Part shown: piece by piece, positions 1-8,869 of the stretch
How positions within the stretch are numbered: position 1 is the stretch's first letter
How the letters are laid out: each line of letters opens with the position of its first letter
Notes under the pieces: model-generated
Told to the model about the DNA's origin: nothing
Database searches by the model: none
Seen by the model: only the letters and a program-made list of their open reading frames with translations
Program-made: the position numbers and the translations under genes
Assembly (NCBI GenBank): GCA_963777955.1
Contig: CAVZSQ010000019.1
Span: 160,001 to 224,000 of the forward strand
From: Calditrichia bacterium
GTDB lineage: Bacteria > Calditrichota > Calditrichia > JAJRVZ01
Direction of reading: 5' to 3'
Length of the DNA stretch: 64,000 nt

Positions 1-1452
1 TTTAGTGGTGAAGAAAGGTTCAAATATCTGTGTTTTCAGATCTTCCGGTATTCCTTTACCTGTATCTTTAACATACAGGTATACCGCTTGCTCAGACAAT
101 TTCAACTCCGTTTTGACCGTGAGCACCCCTTCATTCTCCATTGCTTCCACCGCATTGACGTACAAAGCCAATAAAGCCTGTTTGATCTGACTGTCATCAA
201 TCTCTATGGCCGGCAGGTCGGTTTGGAATTCACGAATCAGTTTGATATTATGTAATTTCAGATGATGGGCAATCAAGTCGATGGAATTATCAATAACATG
301 GTTAAGGTCATGGGCTTTGATCTCGATCGCTTCCTGACGGGAGAACAGCAACATATTTTTTACGATCGTACCGCTGCGCTCGCTTTCTGTTTCGATCATC
401 CGCAGATACTTGAGCATGGCTTCTTTTTCAGGGATAGGTGTATTTTCTTTGATTAATTTTTTCTGGATTAATTTGCTGTAAGTAAGTATGCCGGCGATGG
501 GATTATTCAGCTCATGGGCTACGGTCGCCGATAATTGTCCCAGTGAAGCCATTTTTTCAATCTGCAGATTACGTTTCTGCGTTCGTTCCAGTTCCTGTGT
601 CTTTTCCTGAACCCGGTTTTCCAATTGATTGGACCAGCTGGTGATCTCCCGTTTTGCTTCGCGCAGATCCGCAGTCATTCGATTAAAGGAACGGGCCAGA
701 CTGCCCATTTCATCGCCGGACGTGGATTTAATCTGATAACCGAGATTGCCGTTGGAAACTTCCCTGGTACCAAGGATCAGTCTTTTTACCGGTACATGTA
801 CAAAAAACCAGATCATTATCCCCACGGTCAGGGCCAGGGCCAGCGTGATGGCAATATTGGTCGAGATCATGCGCGAGCGGTTTTGTTCAACAATAGTATC
901 CATCTTTTCCAGGGAAAGACTTATGCGCAATAATCCCAGATAACTATCCGCCTGTTGATGCGCATGACAGTCCGCTGTATAACAACTTGGTTCGTTGGCA
1001 ATCGGTCTGACATAAACCATCAGGCGTTTTCCCCGGGCATCAAAAAAAATATGATGCCAGGCTTCGACAGGTTTTTTTCTCAGTTCGCCCGAGGATTCAT
1101 GACAGGGTGAACATTCCCGTTCGGCAAAGTCGGCTGTGCGATTTATTTCTTCTTCGGCAGTCGAGAAGGCAATCCTGCCGGTTTTATCAAAAAGGGTAAC
1201 TTTCTGGATTCCTTCCTTTTGGACGATCCCTTTCATAATGGAATTAGTCGATTCCGTGGCATTCAGCAGCATAGAATTTCTCATAGACCCGGCGACCACT
1301 TCGCTGGTCCGGTAAGCGCATTGGCGGGCGATCTCGGCATATTGCTCGGATTCTGTTTTGATATAATAGAGTGAAAAACCAACGGTCAGGATGATCAGAA
1401 CCACAAAGACAAGCACAAAGAGTTTAAAACTGAGCAGGCGATAAAAATACAT
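1..1452 (-). CDS. Membrane sensor histidine kinase with a c-heme-binding periplasmic domain and HAMP-HisKA-HATPase; runs off the left edge
   Basis: Not in the ORF track. Manual translation from ATG 1452: MYFYRLLSFKLFVLVFVVLII (TM1), CSPCH at 1113-1099, CYTADCH at 984-964, TM2, HAMP (DEMGSLARSFNRM), H-box VAHELNNP, and F-box QIFEPFFTTK in frame at the window edge. Confidence 0.92.
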   Translation of the reverse strand, partial: MYFYRLLSFKLFVLVFVVLIILTVGFSLYYIKTESEQYAEIARQCAYRTSEVVAGSMRNSMLLNATESTNSIMKGIVQKEGIQKVTLFDKTGRIAFSTAEEEINRTADFAERECSPCHESSGELRKKPVEAWHHIFFDARGKRLMVYVRPIANEPSCYTADCHAHQQADSYLGLLRISLSLEKMDTIVEQNRSRMISTNIAITLALALTVGIMIWFFVHVPVKRLILGTREVSNGNLGYQIKSTSGDEMGSLARSFNRMTADLREAKREITSWSNQLENRVQEKTQELERTQKRNLQIEKMASLGQLSATVAHELNNPIAGILTYSKLIQKKLIKENTPIPEKEAMLKYLRMIETESERSGTIVKNMLLFSRQEAIEIKAHDLNHVIDNSIDLIAHHLKLHNIKLIREFQTDLPAIEIDDSQIKQALLALYVNAVEAMENEGVLTVKTELKLSEQAVYLYVKDTGKGIPEDLKTQIFEPFFTTK

Positions 1453-1534
1453 CTTCGACCTTATTAAATATTTGAATCAAATTAACAAAATATTTAAAAA
1501 AGACAAATTTGATTTTTACATTTATAGCTAAACG

Positions 1535-1560
1535 AAAAAGGCACGAGGATTTCGTGCCTT
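1535..1560 (-). terminator. Intrinsic terminator after the gcvH-like/nrfD operon
   Basis: Stem AAGGCACGA/TCGTGCCTT with a T-run on the minus strand, about 30 nt after the stop at 1592. Confidence 0.7.
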
Positions 1561-1591: not shown

Positions 1592-2308
1592 TTACTCATT
1601 ATGAGCCAGCTCTTTGCTCAACAAGAATTCCTCTGCCATTCCATGCCAGTTCTGGGGTGCGATTTCCCGTAAAAAACAGTCCTTGATTTGCCCTCCATCG
1701 GCCAGTACCGGTATCGTATCAGCGCTGATCAGTTGGTTCAATTTGTCCACAGTGTGTTGCAGCCAGGTATAGGCGATTTTCCCGGTGAGCAGATTTTTCA
1801 GATGAGTGCTCAAGCTGGGCACCCGCATCAACATGAACCAGCCATTTTCATAAGGATCTGTTTGCCGAAACTCACCGGGTTTATTCACTTTTTCATTTAC
1901 CTGCATTACTTCTCCGCTGACCGGCGCCAGGAATGAAAGCGATTTACCGTCAATCTCCGCGCTCCAGGCTTTTGAACCCTGCTGCAGATATTGTCCTTTT
2001 TCAGGTAAATTCCAGCGCGCTTCGGCACCTACTAACTTGCGGGCAAAATCATCGATTCCAATTTTAACGATATCGCCTTTTTCCGGTTTGACCCAGGTAT
2101 GACCCTGGTGGTAAAAATAACTGCCATCAAGATAAAACCAATCGATCAGTCTGATTCTTTTTTTACTTCCGGCCACAGCCAGTGCTGCTCCGGTAACCGG
2201 TGTATTCATCCAGCGCAGGAAGAAGTACATCAGGATTAAGAAAAAGATAACCAGGACATATTCGAATCCTTTGGTCGAAAAGATATCTATATATTTGAAA
2301 CCTTCCAT
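1592..2308 (-). CDS. Membrane-anchored GcvH-like (lipoyl-domain fold) protein B lacking the canonical lipoyl-Lys
   Basis: N-terminal TM helix; H-protein motifs GHTWV, GIDDFA, LAPVSGEV..VN and DPYENGW; the ESVK lipoylation site is replaced by EIDG(K); C-terminal LADGG extension. Confidence 0.85.
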   Translation of the reverse strand: MEGFKYIDIFSTKGFEYVLVIFFLILMYFFLRWMNTPVTGAALAVAGSKKRIRLIDWFYLDGSYFYHQGHTWVKPEKGDIVKIGIDDFARKLVGAEARWNLPEKGQYLQQGSKAWSAEIDGKSLSFLAPVSGEVMQVNEKVNKPGEFRQTDPYENGWFMLMRVPSLSTHLKNLLTGKIAYTWLQHTVDKLNQLISADTIPVLADGGQIKDCFLREIAPQNWHGMAEEFLLSKELAHNE

Positions 2309-3594
2309 GTTTCCAACTCCTTTTCTTTGAGATCATAAATATTATCAAATTTGCCATTCTTGCCAGCGCTGGCCCACAGCGGGGATTCACTCAACACCGG
2401 CATACGATTTACTATCCAGCGCAATACGACGATCTCGACAAAGATTACAGCCAGAGTAACTTCTATTTCCATCCAGGAGGGTATATATCTTTGTAGCGCC
2501 TGCCAGTTATAGGCGATAACCGAGATATTCAGACGGTTCAGAACAATACCGATCAGCGTAGTGACGGCCGCAAATTTTATCAGCTGCATGTTGCGATGCC
2601 GGAAGGCCTGTACGAATAAGATAAGCGGAACTACCACAAAACCAATCATTTCTACCAGATACCAGTAGCCCCAGCCGGTATCGATATAAGTCCAGTGCTT
2701 CTCATGAATGAACATCAGGACTTTCAGAAAAGCATAAACAAACATGCTGCCGGCGCAGATTTTGGTCAGGCTGAAAACGATATTATCATGTGATTGCTCG
2801 ATCCTGGGACTGAGCAGGTTTCTGAATACTTTATGGCTGATACTTCCTTCGAGAATCACCATGGACAGACCGGCAAAGATGCTGGAGATGAAGAACAGAA
2901 TGGGAATGAATTCTGAATACCACAGCGGGTGTATCTTGCTCTTGGCCATCAGGAACAACGCCCCCAAACCAGCCTGATGCAGGGTGGAGAGGGTGATGCC
3001 AATCACCACCGTGCCCAGGGTCAGGGAATGCAGAATTTTACGGATTCTTTTCCAGCCCAGCCATTCGGCAATGGCTGGTGAAAATTCAATAAATTCAGCC
3101 AGCATATACAGTAAAAAATGCCAGGCCACCAGAAACATTACCGAACTTACCCCGAATGAATTGCCGATGATCGGATTGACCACATTCCAGGGACGGCCCA
3201 GATCGAGTAACAGCGCTCCTGTGTAAAACACATAAGCCAGCAGCCCGTTGAGTACTGTTATCCTGGCGATCGGATGGTATTTTTCCAGATTCAGGACATA
3301 AACCAGGAACACCAGCACATAGGCACCGCCGGCGAAGGCGACGCCGGTGATCACATCAAATCCGATCCAGATCCCCCAGGGAAAATCCTGGGACAGATTG
3401 GTGACTGAACTCAGTCCGAAGATGAAACGAATAATGATCAGCACGGCTCCGACACCAATAATTATTGCCGACAGAACATTGAACGGGGTGATTAGTTTAC
3501 CCTTGGGTTTGAGTTCCTGCCGCAGGAATTTGAAAAATCTATGTCCTTCCGACTTGAGTAATAATTTTGAATCGACTGCTGTTTCCATCTTCAC
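2287..3594 (-). CDS. NrfD/PsrC-family (HybB/HmcC-like) quinone-interacting membrane subunit
   Basis: TNLSQDFPWGIWIGFDVITGVAFAGG, DLGRPW, LSTLHQ and HPLW motifs; about 10 TM helices. Confidence 0.9.
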   Translation of the reverse strand: MKMETAVDSKLLLKSEGHRFFKFLRQELKPKGKLITPFNVLSAIIIGVGAVLIIIRFIFGLSSVTNLSQDFPWGIWIGFDVITGVAFAGGAYVLVFLVYVLNLEKYHPIARITVLNGLLAYVFYTGALLLDLGRPWNVVNPIIGNSFGVSSVMFLVAWHFLLYMLAEFIEFSPAIAEWLGWKRIRKILHSLTLGTVVIGITLSTLHQAGLGALFLMAKSKIHPLWYSEFIPILFFISSIFAGLSMVILEGSISHKVFRNLLSPRIEQSHDNIVFSLTKICAGSMFVYAFLKVLMFIHEKHWTYIDTGWGYWYLVEMIGFVVVPLILFVQAFRHRNMQLIKFAAVTTLIGIVLNRLNISVIAYNWQALQRYIPSWMEIEVTLAVIFVEIVVLRWIVNRMPVLSESPLWASAGKNGKFDNIYDLKEKELETWKVSNI

Positions 3595-4446
3595 TCCTCC
3601 CCCTCAGATTTTTCCTTCCTGTCTTTGGTAGCAGCATGCAAAGCCAGCAGGAAAGCCGGTAACAGAATATCTACCACAGGCACACTATATAGAAACGTTT
3701 TGGTATGTTCCGGATACGGCTTTTCACCCAGATCGGTGCGGAATCCGATCTTTTCAAAAGGAACGGCCGAGAGGTATAACACGGAACTTCCCCCCACCTC
3801 CTGTTCGCCATATATATAATGAAGATAGGAATCGGGTTGCGTATAAATTCGCTTGTACGCTTCCTCTAATAAATCCCTGCGGCGCCCAAAAACGATTGCT
3901 TGTTCCGGGCATTCAGTGGCACAAGCCGGCTGATTACCGGTTTGCAGCCGGTCCCAGCATAAAATGCACTTCTGTATTTTGGGTATCGCTTTATCATATT
4001 CGAATTTTGGAATTTCATAAGGGCAGGATATCATACAAAACCGGCAGCCCAGACATTTACTTTCACGCCAGATTACAGCTCCGTCAGTCCGATTTATATA
4101 AGGCCTTGGAAACACAGGCAGCCACACAGGCTGGTTGATTGCAGTGCATGCATTGTTTCTTGACAAATATTTCCTGTCCCTCAACTTCAAACCGGTTAAC
4201 CAGGGTCCACTGTGTCGCCGAAGTATTACGCGGACCCTGAAACATGGCATCCAGGTCGGGTTCCGGCAGATCATGGGCTTCGGCACAGGCAACGGAACAG
4301 GTCTGGCAGCCCACACAGCGGGTCGTATCGATTAACAACCCTGAAAACTCTTTTTCAGATTCACTCTCCTGTGCACGAATCTGATCCAGCGGGAGAGCCG
4401 ACAGGCCGATCACCCCCAGAGTTTTGACAAAGTTTCTCCTATCCAT
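3591..4446 (-). CDS. Tat-exported 4x[4Fe-4S] ferredoxin (HybA/HmcB-like) with C-terminal TM anchor; frameshift near 4090
   Basis: Tat signal MDRRNFVK; Cys motifs CVGCQTCSVAC, CMHCNQPACVAAC, CLGCRFCMISCP and CILC...PACATECP; joined from ORFs 4084-4446 and 3591-4316; RBS AAGGAG. Confidence 0.9.
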
Positions 4447-4497
4447 AAATTGTATGCTCCTTATTTCAGCTGTCGCTGTAAGTTTCAGTGGTTCAGT

Positions 4498-4578
4498 TTA
4501 ATGAACTGTTTTGGAATGATGGACCAGATCAAAAGACAGTAGCAATATAATGGCCAGGATAAGACAAAGAATTACCAT
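4498..4578 (-). CDS. 26-aa hydrophobic micro-ORF MVILCLILAIILLLSFDLVHHSKTVH
   Basis: Manual translation; RBS AAGGGGG 5 nt upstream; fills the gap between gcvH-like A and the ferredoxin gene; resembles the TM anchor of gcvH-like A. Confidence 0.55.
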   Translation of the reverse strand: MVILCLILAIILLLSFDLVHHSKTVH

Positions 4579-4597
4579 GATTTCCCCCTTTTGAATT

Positions 4598-5275
4598 TTA
4601 CTTTAAGTTTTGGTGATATGGGAAAAATTTTTGTACGATCAGGGCCCAATCCTGATTGGACATCTGCCTGATATACTCCGGATCGATCTTACCGCCGTCA
4701 TTCAAATAATGTCCCTGCTGGGCATACAGATACAAATCGTCGCGTAATTTTGTGTTAAGCAGTGCCGCCTGGGCATGTGGTAATAGATTATTAGCCTCAC
4801 TGTTCAGACTATCTGCTTTAATTTTGAGGATCCATGATTTTTCAACCTGTGACGACGGCAGGGGCAGATTCATTTTACAGGCCGGATTAATGCCGACAAC
4901 CTCCCCGGACAGCGGTGCCAGTTGCGCCAGAGCATGTTCGCCCAGCTGCACATCCCAGATTTTAGTTCCCTGGGTAAGATGGGATCCTACCAGAGGTAAT
5001 TGCTGTATCTTTACCTGGTCAGTAAACAGGCTGGAAATAAAGTCATCATATCCCACATATAGATATCCCTGATCCGAAGGAACCACCCAGGTGTGGCTAA
5101 GATGATACAGCCGGTTTAATTCATTACCTAGCGGTAGCAGGGCTTTATCCGGACTTAAAAATATCGGCGATTTATCCGATTTGTCTTTTTCTTTTAAAAT
5201 TCTTTCTTCACGGCGGGTCAACCAGTCTATCCCCAGGAAGACCAGAATAGTCAAAAGAACCAGCGCGAATACCAT
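4598..5275 (-). CDS. Membrane-anchored GcvH-like protein A, no lipoyl-Lys
   Basis: N-terminal TM MVFALVLLTILVFLGID; SHTWV, VGYDDF, LAPLSGEVVGIN and WILKIK motifs; the lipoyl hairpin reads QLGEH; C-terminal LNDGG. Confidence 0.82.
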   Translation of the reverse strand: MVFALVLLTILVFLGIDWLTRREERILKEKDKSDKSPIFLSPDKALLPLGNELNRLYHLSHTWVVPSDQGYLYVGYDDFISSLFTDQVKIQQLPLVGSHLTQGTKIWDVQLGEHALAQLAPLSGEVVGINPACKMNLPLPSSQVEKSWILKIKADSLNSEANNLLPHAQAALLNTKLRDDLYLYAQQGHYLNDGGKIDPEYIRQMSNQDWALIVQKFFPYHQNLK

Positions 5276-5316: not shown

Positions 5317-5331
5317 TCAAAATCTATGCCA
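5317..5331 (-). promoter_or_regulatory. Putative sigma54 (-24/-12) promoter
   Basis: TGGCATAGATTTTGA compared with consensus TGGCACG-N4-TTGC (GA instead of GC at -12); about 40 nt upstream of the ATG at 5275. Confidence 0.55.
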
Positions 5332-5613: not shown

Positions 5614-6508
5614 TTAAATCAAAATATCATCTGACCAGCCAATTTTAATCAATTCAATTTTGGTTGGATCTGCTGTACCCAGATGGTGACGTGTGTCGGC
5701 TAGAAATATATGTTTTGGCGGAGGATTGATCGGGCGATCTTCCTTAAAAAATAGTCTGCGTTTGGTCTGAATTATGCGTACACCTGTGGCATCCACGGCT
5801 ACCGGATCAAATCCCACTAATAAACCTTTATACGCCCAGGTGTATTTGGCACTGAAATGATGGGGACCGACACCGTGAAATAAGGGGGTAAGCATTACCA
5901 GAATATTTAGGCGGGTTTTATTCTGGACCAGCGGTAATTTCCAGATTGCAGCCAGATCAGCGCAGGAATCATCATGATAATCCCAGGGTCTCTCTACAAA
6001 CATTATATAATTCTTGATCAGAGTACCGACTCCCGACCAATCATGGGTACGCATCGGCCGGATATTGATCAAAGCCGTGGCTTTCATAAAGACCGGATCA
6101 GTAAGCAAACTTCGATCATTAATACTGATATTTGCGGGAGTCACACCGCAATCTGTAACCCGCATTTTAATATGTGATTCTAATTCGGGAGGAGTGGCCA
6201 GGCGCGACCAGATATTGGTCTTGATTCCCACCACATCGTCCCGATGTAATGATCTGCTTCCAGGCTGCAGCTGCATCCGCTTGATCAGTCAATGCGGAAA
6301 CGGCCTGATCAAGCATGCCCCTGAGCAGGTCAGCGTTCAGCTTATTATTGGCATCAATCACAGCTGCGTCGCGGATCAGTACCACTCTGCTTTTCGTCGC
6401 AGTTTGCGCAAATCCCTTTGCCGGCAGATTCAAATAAAGCGCACCGGCAATTGCAGCAGCGGAGGTATTTTGCATAAATTCACGCCGGGTATAGACTTTC
6501 TTCTTCAT
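5614..6508 (-). CDS. Tat-exported DUF362-family protein (frameshift near 6245)
   Basis: Tat motif TRREF; SRVVLIRD, DVVGIKTN, RTHDWSGV...IKNY and FDPVAVDA motifs; joined from ORFs 6167-6508 and 5614-6276. Confidence 0.75.
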
Positions 6509-7469: not shown

Positions 7470-7499
7470 TGTAGGGACAGGTCGCGACCTGTCCCTACA
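7470..7499. repeat. GTAG-type REP-like perfect palindrome (30 bp)
   Basis: TGTAGGGACAGGTCG|CGACCTGTCCCTACA; overlaps the TAG stop of the oxidoreductase gene. Confidence 0.8.
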
Positions 7500-8869
7500 T
7501 ATTTTTATCTACAATCATATTTTCAACCCGTGGCGGTAAATACTTTTTAATCCAGCTTTCATAATCCCCGTCATAACCGACCTTCTGCTGTAAGTTCTTA
7601 ATCCGGTTATGTATAGCCTGTATCTGTTCCGTCGTCAGTAAACTTTTTCTGGCCAATTTGCGTTGAATCTGGTCTATTTTAGCCTGGCTGTTGCGTTCGG
7701 CTCTCTCGAAAATTTCCTGGTAATCCTGTTCCTGCCAGGCCAGGTATTCATCCATCACCTTTTCCGAAACCTGCCGCCCATGCAGTTGAGATTCTTTTAT
7801 ATTCCCCCTGCCGGTAACAGCATTGCCCGAGGACAAAAACATTCTCAAATCCTTCCATTTGTCCGCTTTCAGTATTTTTGACTTAAATACTCCATCTGCA
7901 AAGGGCAGCATCCGCAATTGGCTCCGGCAAACTGCCGATCGCCGAGATAACCAGGGGAGATTTAACCATGTAGCGACTGTCCGGTATTGTAGTTAATTTT
8001 CCTGCTGATGACACCGTGGTCTTTTCAAAAATCAGACCAGTCAACCTGTCCCTGTCTGCTGTAAAATCGACCGGATAGTGACATTCCCTGAAGCGGAAAA
8101 AGTACTTGCTTTGAAAATTATCCATGATCTTATGACGTACGCGGGAAGCTATTTCAAGTTCCTGCGCTGATGGCCAGGCAGGCAGATTGGTCAGGGGCAT
8201 CTCGCTCAAGCGGCGCCGGTAATATAAGGTACATCCCTGTAAATCCAGTTGGGCCGGAGTAAGGTTTAACTGTTTCAACACTGCCCATACACCTGTTTTC
8301 TCCAGGGTAAGCACATCGAAATAGTAGCCCTGACGTTCCAGTTTTTGCCGCGCTGTTTCGATCGATAAAATCTTGATCACATCCAGGGAGGCCAATCCGC
8401 CGCCAATGACAATTGTACCATCGCTGATATCAAACCGGGGACCCTGATAATCAGGATCGTGATTTTGATTGAACCAGGCTACAAACGGATTCTGATAATA
8501 AAGACCTTTATTGATATAGGCATCGATCCCCTTTACGGGTAAGGGCCGATCCTGCCAGGCCCCGGTGGCCAGCAGGATAGCGCTGAAGTTCCAATTCGTG
8601 ATCAGGTCGGTGAAGGACAGGTCTTTACCCAGACGTACAGAGGGGACATAATGGATCAAGGGGTGCTTGAGTTTAGCGTCGATTTTCTCTTCCTGGCTGT
8701 TGCGCAGGTTGACATGCCATTTGGGTAAACCCGTTTCCAGTTTACCATAAGGCAGGGGATTCTGTTCGAAGATTACACAATTTATATTCCGTTCACTTAA
8801 TCTGGAAGCAGCTTCGGAGCCGGCGACGGCTCCGCCTATAATAGCGACAAAGTGTCCGGGAGAGATCAT
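7495..8869 (-). CDS. FAD/NAD(P)-dependent oxidoreductase (ferredoxin-NADP reductase/GltD-like); frameshift near 7900
   Basis: Rossmann motifs VAIIGGAVAGSEAA, LLATGAW, VIGGGLASLD, VISAIGSLP and GNAVTGRGNI. Confidence 0.8.

Follow-up and report, generated by a model that had tools for sequence, protein, structure and literature searches.

An apparently undescribed, widespread Hmc-derived ferredoxin-NrfD cassette with lipoyl-less H-fold proteins: a possible redox-sensing input to a heme-c histidine kinase

We describe here a compact operon from a Calditrichia bacterium, found in a 64,000-nucleotide stretch of DNA (hereafter the window; positions 160,001 to 224,000 of the forward strand of contig CAVZSQ010000019.1, assembly GCA_963777955.1), in which a ferredoxin and an NrfD-type membrane protein are combined with two proteins of the GcvH fold (H-folds), and which we call the cassette. 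The genes lie on the minus strand in the order H-A, micro-ORF of 26 amino acids, ferredoxin, NrfD, H-B, followed by a terminator; calls of open reading frames (ORFs), family matches and a hairpin scan confirm the gene order, strand, coordinates, overlaps and terminator given in an earlier note made from the letters of the window. The features, in window coordinates, are as follows.

5317..5331, minus strand: sigma-54-type (-24/-12) promoter motif, a TGGCA-N6-TTGA variant; the motif stands upstream of related loci, and the genome has rpoN
4598..5275, minus strand: H-fold protein A (H-A), PF01597 at E 1e-9; anchor helix, lipoyl-less GcvH fold and helical tail with a DGG motif
4498..4578, minus strand: hydrophobic micro-ORF of 26 amino acids, similar to the anchor helix of H-A, with counterparts in same-family loci
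3591..4446, minus strand: HmcB/HybA-like ferredoxin with RR signal motif, 16 Cys and C-terminal anchor; frame split in the assembly
2287..3594, minus strand: HmcC-like ten-helix NrfD of a distinct clade, PF03916; Leu155 in place of HybB Glu133, invariant His159
1592..2308, minus strand: H-fold protein B (H-B), PF01597 at E 7e-19; HmcD-like helix (residues 1-38), lipoyl-less GcvH fold and DGG tail
1528..1560, minus strand: intrinsic-terminator-like hairpin (1538-1560) and T-run, between H-B and the kinase gene
1..1452, extending beyond the window, minus strand: histidine kinase of 532 amino acids with periplasmic CxxCH and Cx4CH motifs

A Shine-Dalgarno-like stretch precedes all five genes, and the ferredoxin/NrfD and NrfD/H-B pairs overlap. 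Hydrophobic helices are found once at the N-terminus of each of H-A, H-B and the micro-ORF, ten times in NrfD and once at the C-terminus of the ferredoxin, whose 16 Cys residues, all conserved across loci, are predicted to hold four iron-sulfur (FeS) clusters; the genome encodes tatC as well as rpoN. The micro-ORF has a counterpart at the same position in all five same-family loci screened (L087-L090, L093). The terminator scan listed this hairpin on the plus strand only; on the minus strand it is followed by the T-run.

The earlier note gave the composition of the five-gene operon correctly but overlooked a frameshift in the ferredoxin gene, which an additional base at 4087/4088 breaks into a 120-amino-acid ORF and a second frame. 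On this ground the copy in this genome could be regarded as a decaying pseudo-operon, or the grouping as a chance regulon cluster. However, the extra base is absent from the contigs of three of the four sequencing runs (a single contig from each run, at depth 2.6-3.9; the place is not covered in the fourth), one of these contigs differs from the window at only two other letters in 190, and a same-genus genome, 83% identical in DNA across the whole operon, has an intact ferredoxin gene of 284 amino acids. The frameshift is likely an assembly error, or else a private mutation. With synteny conserved, as described below, in considerably more than 100 loci of many phyla, pseudogene status of the family is rejected, and we consider decay or chance clustering very improbable. 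Upstream of the operon, a DUF362 gene (5614-6508) and a pyridine-nucleotide oxidoreductase gene (7495-8869) each seem to be split in two frames as well, so that the assembly may contain several indel errors.

The cassette is not confined to this genome. A genome scan with NrfD returned 584 related stretches, of which the best 80 were analysed (fractions count the loci with enough flank). The ferredoxin stands upstream of NrfD in 79/80 of them, an H-fold upstream in 68/70 (64/70 under a first, stricter rule) and downstream in 72/73, together with the heme kinase in 56/61, the regulator in 48/52 and an archaemetzincin in 41/45, while a multiheme gene occurs in one of the 34 fully flanked loci (11/80 overall). 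The record titles name Bacteroidota, Chlorobiota, Ignavibacteria, Gemmatimonadota, Calditrichia, Planctomycetota, Krumholzibacteriia, Verrucomicrobiota and deltaproteobacteria. In a further sample of 80 metagenome and 36 Prolixibacteraceae-type loci, respectively, H-A was found in 42/44 and 34/34, H-B in 57/63 and 36/36, the kinase in 30/36 and 28/33, and multiheme genes in 9/80 and 0/36; among the metagenome loci the regulator was present in 22/26 and the archaemetzincin in 16/20. No ORF for HmcE (NarI-like) or HmcF (cytoplasmic FeS) is conserved in the 80 genome loci, nor is any gcvT/gcvP or shdr/lipoate-assembly neighbour among their clustered ORFs, and the cassette contains no hydrogenase or molybdoenzyme genes and no linked group 1 hydrogenase subunits. 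The neighbourhood search that the earlier note had proposed as a check on its distinct complex found the synteny conserved across many phyla and a catalytic subunit not always present, which leaves that proposal standing, and the locus counts bear out a distinct, conserved module with linked sigma-54 and heme-kinase genes. The module is real, widespread and apparently undescribed: a literature search, with subscription journals mostly outside its coverage, yielded no description of the cassette, and the word "archaemetzincin" is absent from the papers matched in a part of that search. Carriers number hundreds of genomes from anoxic-habitat lineages (39/121 genomes of one Bacteroidota family) and include a cultured organism, Maribellus mangrovi (L050).

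The ferredoxin and NrfD had been described in the earlier note as a HybAB/HmcBC/NrfCD-type pair. The FeS/NrfD pair is confirmed, but family matches, the NrfD tree and a match to HmcD indicate that it is specifically Hmc-derived rather than a generic HybAB. The best NCBIfam matches of the two proteins are HmcB and HmcC, both under the family cut-off (305.7 against 420 bits for HmcB, measured on the relative in L019, and 413.2 against 550 bits for HmcC). In a quick tree with flagged long branches, the cassette NrfDs form a clade (41 rows, support 96) that is apart from HybB and from cytochrome-linked paralogs and is sister to the HmcC of a complete hmc operon (support 99). H-B resembles HmcD over its first 38 residues: 35 of 70 H-B members match NF045712 at E<=0.1 (best 5.9e-6; none shown over the cut-off, and the window's own H-B not among the 35), and the N-terminal profile of H-B, compared with the HmcD of the complete hmc operon, gives a probability of 90 and E 1.5e-6. 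By these similarities, the core of the cassette is HmcB-HmcC-HmcD, with HmcA, HmcE and HmcF gone and HmcD fused to an H-fold. In one locus (L170, G175:C4) a complete hmcABCDEF operon is divergent from two H-fold genes and accompanied by a kinase and a sigma-54 regulator; it is plausible that a true hmc operon flanked by two H genes and a cassette-type kinase represents the ancestral setting. A relocated subunit of hydrogenase 2 or of alternative complex III was considered and rejected, as the genome has a separate NrfD-family gene, near a 5-heme gene on another contig (C13). Its two NiFe large-subunit frames (414 and 442 amino acids) are located away from the cassette.

The cassette NrfD fits the NrfD/PsrC ten-helix group, with PF03916 over the cut-off, ten helices and a four-cluster ferredoxin as its partner; its model matches ActC (TM-score 0.63-0.66), and neither NrfD nor its alignment, used as a sequence query, found a match in the PDB. 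Aligned to E. coli HybB, 77-80 of the 80 loci retain the equivalents of W54, D58, R89, Y99, D109, H184 and E228, while the position of E133 is occupied by Leu in 80/80, a count that is partly circular since the scan patterns contained the Leu motif, and that of C137 by an invariant His. Among 19 NrfD ORFs found via H-B, the E133 position is Leu in 12, Met in two, Glu in three and unread in two, and Glu is retained in true HmcC and in three of four second NrfD copies, which adjoin multiheme genes. Lubek et al. are said to have found in 2019 that E133 of HybB is required for activity. In QrcD, according to the available excerpt of PMC6303296, E142 sits in the menaquinone site; the spacing of the residue numbers in that paper suggests that E142 corresponds to L155, and QrcD Y150, E157 and E164 map by one offset onto the invariant Y163, E170 and E177 of the cassette NrfD. 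Replacement of the Glu amounts to a remodelled quinone site, and by itself is no proof of lost catalysis; should the sensor hypothesis set out below hold, it would also provide a natural Glu-to-Leu/His variant for work on the mechanism. In three loci with the Leu/His variety of NrfD (L219, L220, L227) a protein of about 130 amino acids and of unassigned kind replaces H-A, its start resembling, by eye, a degenerate receiver; L219 also holds acetyl-CoA-synthetase-like and Rex-like ORFs (labels by eye).

The H-folds were correctly recognized from the start as lipoyl-less, membrane-anchored GcvH paralogs: the position of the lipoyl Lys is Glu in H-A and Gly in H-B, and both possess the N-terminal helix. 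Lys is found at this position in 0/70 H-B and 1/67 H-A sequences, and one place later in 57/70 and 51/67, respectively; in a second sample a regular-expression count gave Lys at the position in 9/85 H ORFs. A canonical GcvH with the Lys is encoded elsewhere in the genome. The model of H-B (predicted local distance difference test 85.6) comprises the anchor helix, an H-protein fold and the helical tail, with a root-mean-square deviation of about 2 A from H-proteins over 120-130 residues, and a search of the ESM Atlas returned only GCV_H clusters. No invariant Cys and no conserved cofactor ligands are present in the H domains of the H-A and H-B alignments. A role in glycine cleavage or as an LbpA of the sHdr system was rejected, for there is no lipoyl Lys and there are no linked genes; the annotation "glycine cleavage system H protein" that these proteins carry misleads metabolic reconstruction. 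H-A is fused to a receiver domain in 5/67 cases, and its long forms (49/67) have the layout signal peptide, periplasmic binding protein (PBP)-like domain, helix, H domain (one is a mis-extended ORF, and the PBP matches are weak and below cut-off), apparently a receptor-like architecture. Because of this layout, the receiver fusions and the basic residues after the anchor, the H domain is predicted to be cytoplasmic, opposite the ferredoxin. The tree of H domains is poorly resolved, with the canonical GcvH rows as long branches, and does not show the long H-folds to be monophyletic. In L024:1323 and in protein P0002, two H-folds are fused in tandem, a hint that the domains pair. Long H-folds also stand at the C-terminus of Fer4/FlpD/molybdopterin-binding proteins (L161:9607-12519, L162, L168) and of an acetyl-CoA synthetase (L133:6176-8812).

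It might be supposed that the H-folds have replaced HmcE/HmcF, and that by docking cytoplasmic redox enzymes, or by bearing lipoate on the Lys next to the usual position, they couple cytoplasmic metabolism to the membrane module. H-B is joined to HmcD at precisely the place where hmcE would come next, and this idea could draw as well on the fusions just listed, on the HdrA-like flavoproteins that adjoin related H-folds and on the Lys counts given above. On the other hand, lipoylation needs Lys at the turn position, the H domains are without conserved cofactor ligands and the cassette has no conserved enzyme gene. Moreover, NrfD-type proteins are without transmembrane cofactors (excerpt of PMC6303296), which would leave no wire to the cytoplasm; we consider such a replacement unlikely.

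H-folds of this kind are encoded both with and without NrfD. From 151 genomes of another phylum (that of genome G031), 40 regions around the best H matches were hand-picked out of the 150 listed of 278 matches. NrfD lies within 5 kb in 17 of them, 15 of which have the kinase, the activator and the archaemetzincin; of the 23 others, 12 have kinase, regulator and archaemetzincin, 19 at least one of these and four none. In the NrfD-free regions the kinases are without the heme domain, and many of the H proteins are soluble and begin with a Cys-rich N-terminus. In five of the 40 regions a tetraheme cytochrome of 100-150 amino acids is encoded inside the cassette. The kinase cores form one branch of 53 rows (Shimodaira-Hasegawa-like approximate likelihood ratio test, 97) that joins the two kinds of loci: it includes 35/36 heme kinases from NrfD loci, 15/18 kinases from NrfD-free H loci and, of the 37 kinases that this genome encodes, just the cassette's own. 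The CxxCH and Cx4CH motifs of the kinase are kept in 123/128 loci, and the heme region of the cassette kinase gives a weak match to PF21563; the archaemetzincin keeps the Glu of its catalytic motif in 107/110 cases, and for 33/70 archaemetzincin matches a listed long H-fold is no more than 6 kb away. The earlier note had viewed the H-folds as subunits of a complex. They are indeed conserved membrane-tethered parts but, because they track the kinase, regulator and archaemetzincin as faithfully as they do NrfD, they look more like signalling parts than structural respiratory subunits. In an analysis of paired covariation (mutual information with average product correction; 15 pairings, 100-190 paired loci) the positive controls, kinase-receiver and NrfD-ferredoxin, scored no better than the negatives. 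Ten NrfD-free loci (L156-L160, L163-L167) combine a soluble Cys-rich H-fold with the kinase, sigma-54 regulator and archaemetzincin, several of them beside an HdrA-like flavoprotein of about 1490 amino acids and an MTHFR-like gene.

A TGGCA-N6-TTG motif stands 56 bases before H-A. The sigma-54 pattern was tuned after this site had been seen; in the first locus set it occurs upstream in 30/62 related loci against 0.5 expected, and in 76 independent loci it occurs upstream in 39, against 0.3 expected, and in none inside NrfD. It is found, too, ahead of H genes in loci without NrfD and ahead of the barrel gene in the nearby cytochrome cluster described below, but a site before multiheme clusters was found in only 2/20 Bacteroidota regions; a sigma-70 scan remained at chance level (9 versus 9.6). 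The conserved motif, rpoN and the adjoining heme kinase and sigma-54 regulator support the sigma-54 and heme-sensor link of the operon that had been postulated. Across the genome, several genes, dnaK-like and pyruvate:ferredoxin oxidoreductase-like ORFs (labels by eye) among them, are preceded by sigma-54-like sites that end in TTGA instead of TTGC; this ending may be a form of the -12 element particular to the lineage.

Taken together, these data lead us to propose, with about even confidence, that the HmcB-like ferredoxin, the HmcC-like NrfD and the HmcD/H-fold protein form a membrane redox-sensing input unit for the adjacent heme-c kinase and do not serve a catalytic enzyme. We favor this reading because the kinase, regulator and archaemetzincin follow the module while multiheme genes rarely do; because H-folds persist beside the same kinase set, of one kinase branch, in NrfD-free regions; because H-A carries receiver and binding-protein fusions and the kinase keeps its heme motifs; because E133 is changed to Leu while the other quinone-site residues are kept and the multiheme-linked second copies mostly retain Glu; and because the sigma-54 motif is conserved, also in NrfD-free loci, and the cassette co-occurs with a NapC-type cytochrome (see below). 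As judged from homology and charge, the ferredoxin would lie on the outer and the H-folds on the cytoplasmic side, with the HmcD helix attaching H-B to NrfD. Electrons would equilibrate between quinone, NrfD, the FeS wire and the heme domain of the kinase, relayed by the small tetraheme cytochrome where one is encoded, and in this manner the heme-c histidine kinase and the sigma-54 regulator would be informed by the unit of the redox state of the quinone pool. The H-folds may act as cytoplasmic docking or feedback domains on either of these, and the regulator would drive both the cassette operon, as feedback, and multiheme electron-transfer genes.

The surroundings of the operon are relevant in this respect. 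Downstream on the same strand follow the CxxCH/Cx4CH kinase, a sigma-54 response regulator and an archaemetzincin (the latter two outside the window), then a convergent NapC-type membrane cytochrome (6 CxxCH) and a second kinase/regulator pair, and further on 9-, 12- and 11-heme genes, the 11-heme one continuing into a cytochrome b domain, and a gene for a probable beta-barrel that matches no family. The earlier note had called the module an orphan, which is true of the operon, but a multiheme cytochrome cluster lies 4-16 kb downstream on the same contig, outside the window. The electron-transfer island at 145731-157865 of this contig (C19), 2-14 kb past the window start, comprises the NapC-type cytochrome, the second kinase/regulator pair (a heme-motif kinase and a sigma-54 regulator), a 9-heme lipoprotein, the barrel, the 12-heme protein and the 11-heme cytochrome b fusion, as well as a Geobacter-type CxxxxCH gene in two pieces. 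By their architecture, the cytochromes of this island would be ImcH-like and CbcL-like. ImcH and CbcL have roles at high and low acceptor potential, respectively (PMC8235581, available excerpt). In Bacteroidota, a recurring cluster in cassette-bearing genomes (L174-L188) encodes 6-7-heme proteins, a DUF5777 barrel, a 19-heme cytochrome b fusion and a NapC-type cytochrome.

These findings also bear on the main alternative, which we regard as clearly possible though less probable than a sensor: that the cassette is an Hmc-type respiratory quinol:cytochrome c (or cytochrome c:quinone) module with a soluble multiheme partner encoded elsewhere, in which the kinase and regulator only control transcription and the H-folds are accessory. 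Multiheme genes are present in all 30 cassette genomes examined for them (a figure with no control set), a multiheme cluster lies 4-16 kb away in this one, and the tetraheme genes inside five cassettes agree with a respiratory role too. The NapC-type multiheme membrane cytochrome is found in 35/39 cassette genomes versus 20/82 others of one Bacteroidota family, where kin are not independent, and this co-occurrence fits both a sensor for multiheme electron transfer and a component of it. Several points weigh against the sensor hypothesis, and the conserved channel residues and Cys as well as the terminator also speak for a respiratory module. Multiheme cytochromes encoded elsewhere could act as partners in trans, and catalysis may be intact, as the other proton-path residues and the 16 Cys are conserved and the new His could substitute for the lost Glu. 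The terminator separates the operon from the kinase, which may therefore only regulate it. In addition, the kinase tree is a quick one with a one-genome background, and the Leu count has the circularity mentioned above. H-B was missing by filter in 6/63 metagenome loci, one of them a filter miss, which leaves five without H-B after NrfD; kinase genes are missing in L013, L015 and 5/33 Prolixibacteraceae-type loci; and two loci (L143, L144) combine H-folds with a Glu-keeping NrfD and no kinase. Nonetheless, a respiratory module leaves unexplained why H-folds stand beside the same kinase subfamily without NrfD, why they are fused to receiver and binding-protein domains, and why the whole clade lost a quinone-site Glu that is kept by cytochrome-linked paralogs and true HmcC.

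It is tempting to extend the sensor hypothesis, although with somewhat less confidence than the hypothesis itself, and to suggest that an HmcBCD respiratory module was converted to a dedicated sensor of redox potential, and that the lipoate-less, DGG-tailed H-fold may be an unrecognised, widespread signalling domain which plugs varied inputs into one histidine-kinase subfamily with its sigma-54 activator and archaemetzincin protease. These inputs would be, equally tentatively, the quinone module, a periplasmic binding protein, a receiver domain, a Cys-rich metal site and flavoenzymes. If so, it is through the cassette that anaerobes outside the usual models would gauge acceptor potential and switch their multiheme electron-transfer pathways accordingly. 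The cassette would then be an answer to how cells choose by redox potential among several inner-membrane cytochrome exits; it would also provide a role for HmcD and the first pathway or context for bacterial archaemetzincins.

Among known systems, HybAB of E. coli hydrogenase 2 and QrcCD resemble the cassette in their NrfD (29% identity to HybB over 373 residues, with the channel residues kept), but the cassette has no hydrogenase or molybdoenzyme genes and has lost E133. The ferredoxin-NrfD-multiheme cytochrome modules (Fig. 3 of bioRxiv 10.1101/2023.11.02.564894 and PMC9386147) likewise possess an FeS/NrfD pair without a molybdoenzyme; in the available excerpts they include a cytochrome, or two, and their flanking genes are not conserved, whereas the cassette is mostly without a cytochrome and its H-folds, kinase, regulator and archaemetzincin are conserved, and such modules occur as separate paralogs beside it in L007, L012 and L056. 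The lipoyl carriers GcvH, LbpA and GcvH-L share the H-protein fold, while the H-folds of the cassette are without the lipoyl Lys, have a membrane anchor and a 50-residue helical DGG tail, and score far below the gcvH cut-offs. Periplasmic sensors with c-type heme (DcrA, Geobacter GSU0582/GSU0935 and heme-motif two-component proteins) similarly have a CX2-4CH motif between two helices, a HAMP and an output domain, but none is linked to an FeS/NrfD module or to H-folds in the available excerpt of PMC8396549. The core itself relates to the Hmc complex (HmcABCDEF) of Desulfovibrio vulgaris, whose composition and regulators, encoded alongside, are described in the accessible part of bioRxiv 10.1101/2023.11.02.564894; Table S3 of that work may list members of the cassette family. 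Both systems have a tail-anchored Tat ferredoxin, a ten-helix NrfD and a small HmcD helix in the same order, with regulators alongside, but in the cassette the 16-heme HmcA, HmcE and HmcF are gone, the quinone-site Glu is replaced and HmcD is fused to an H-fold.

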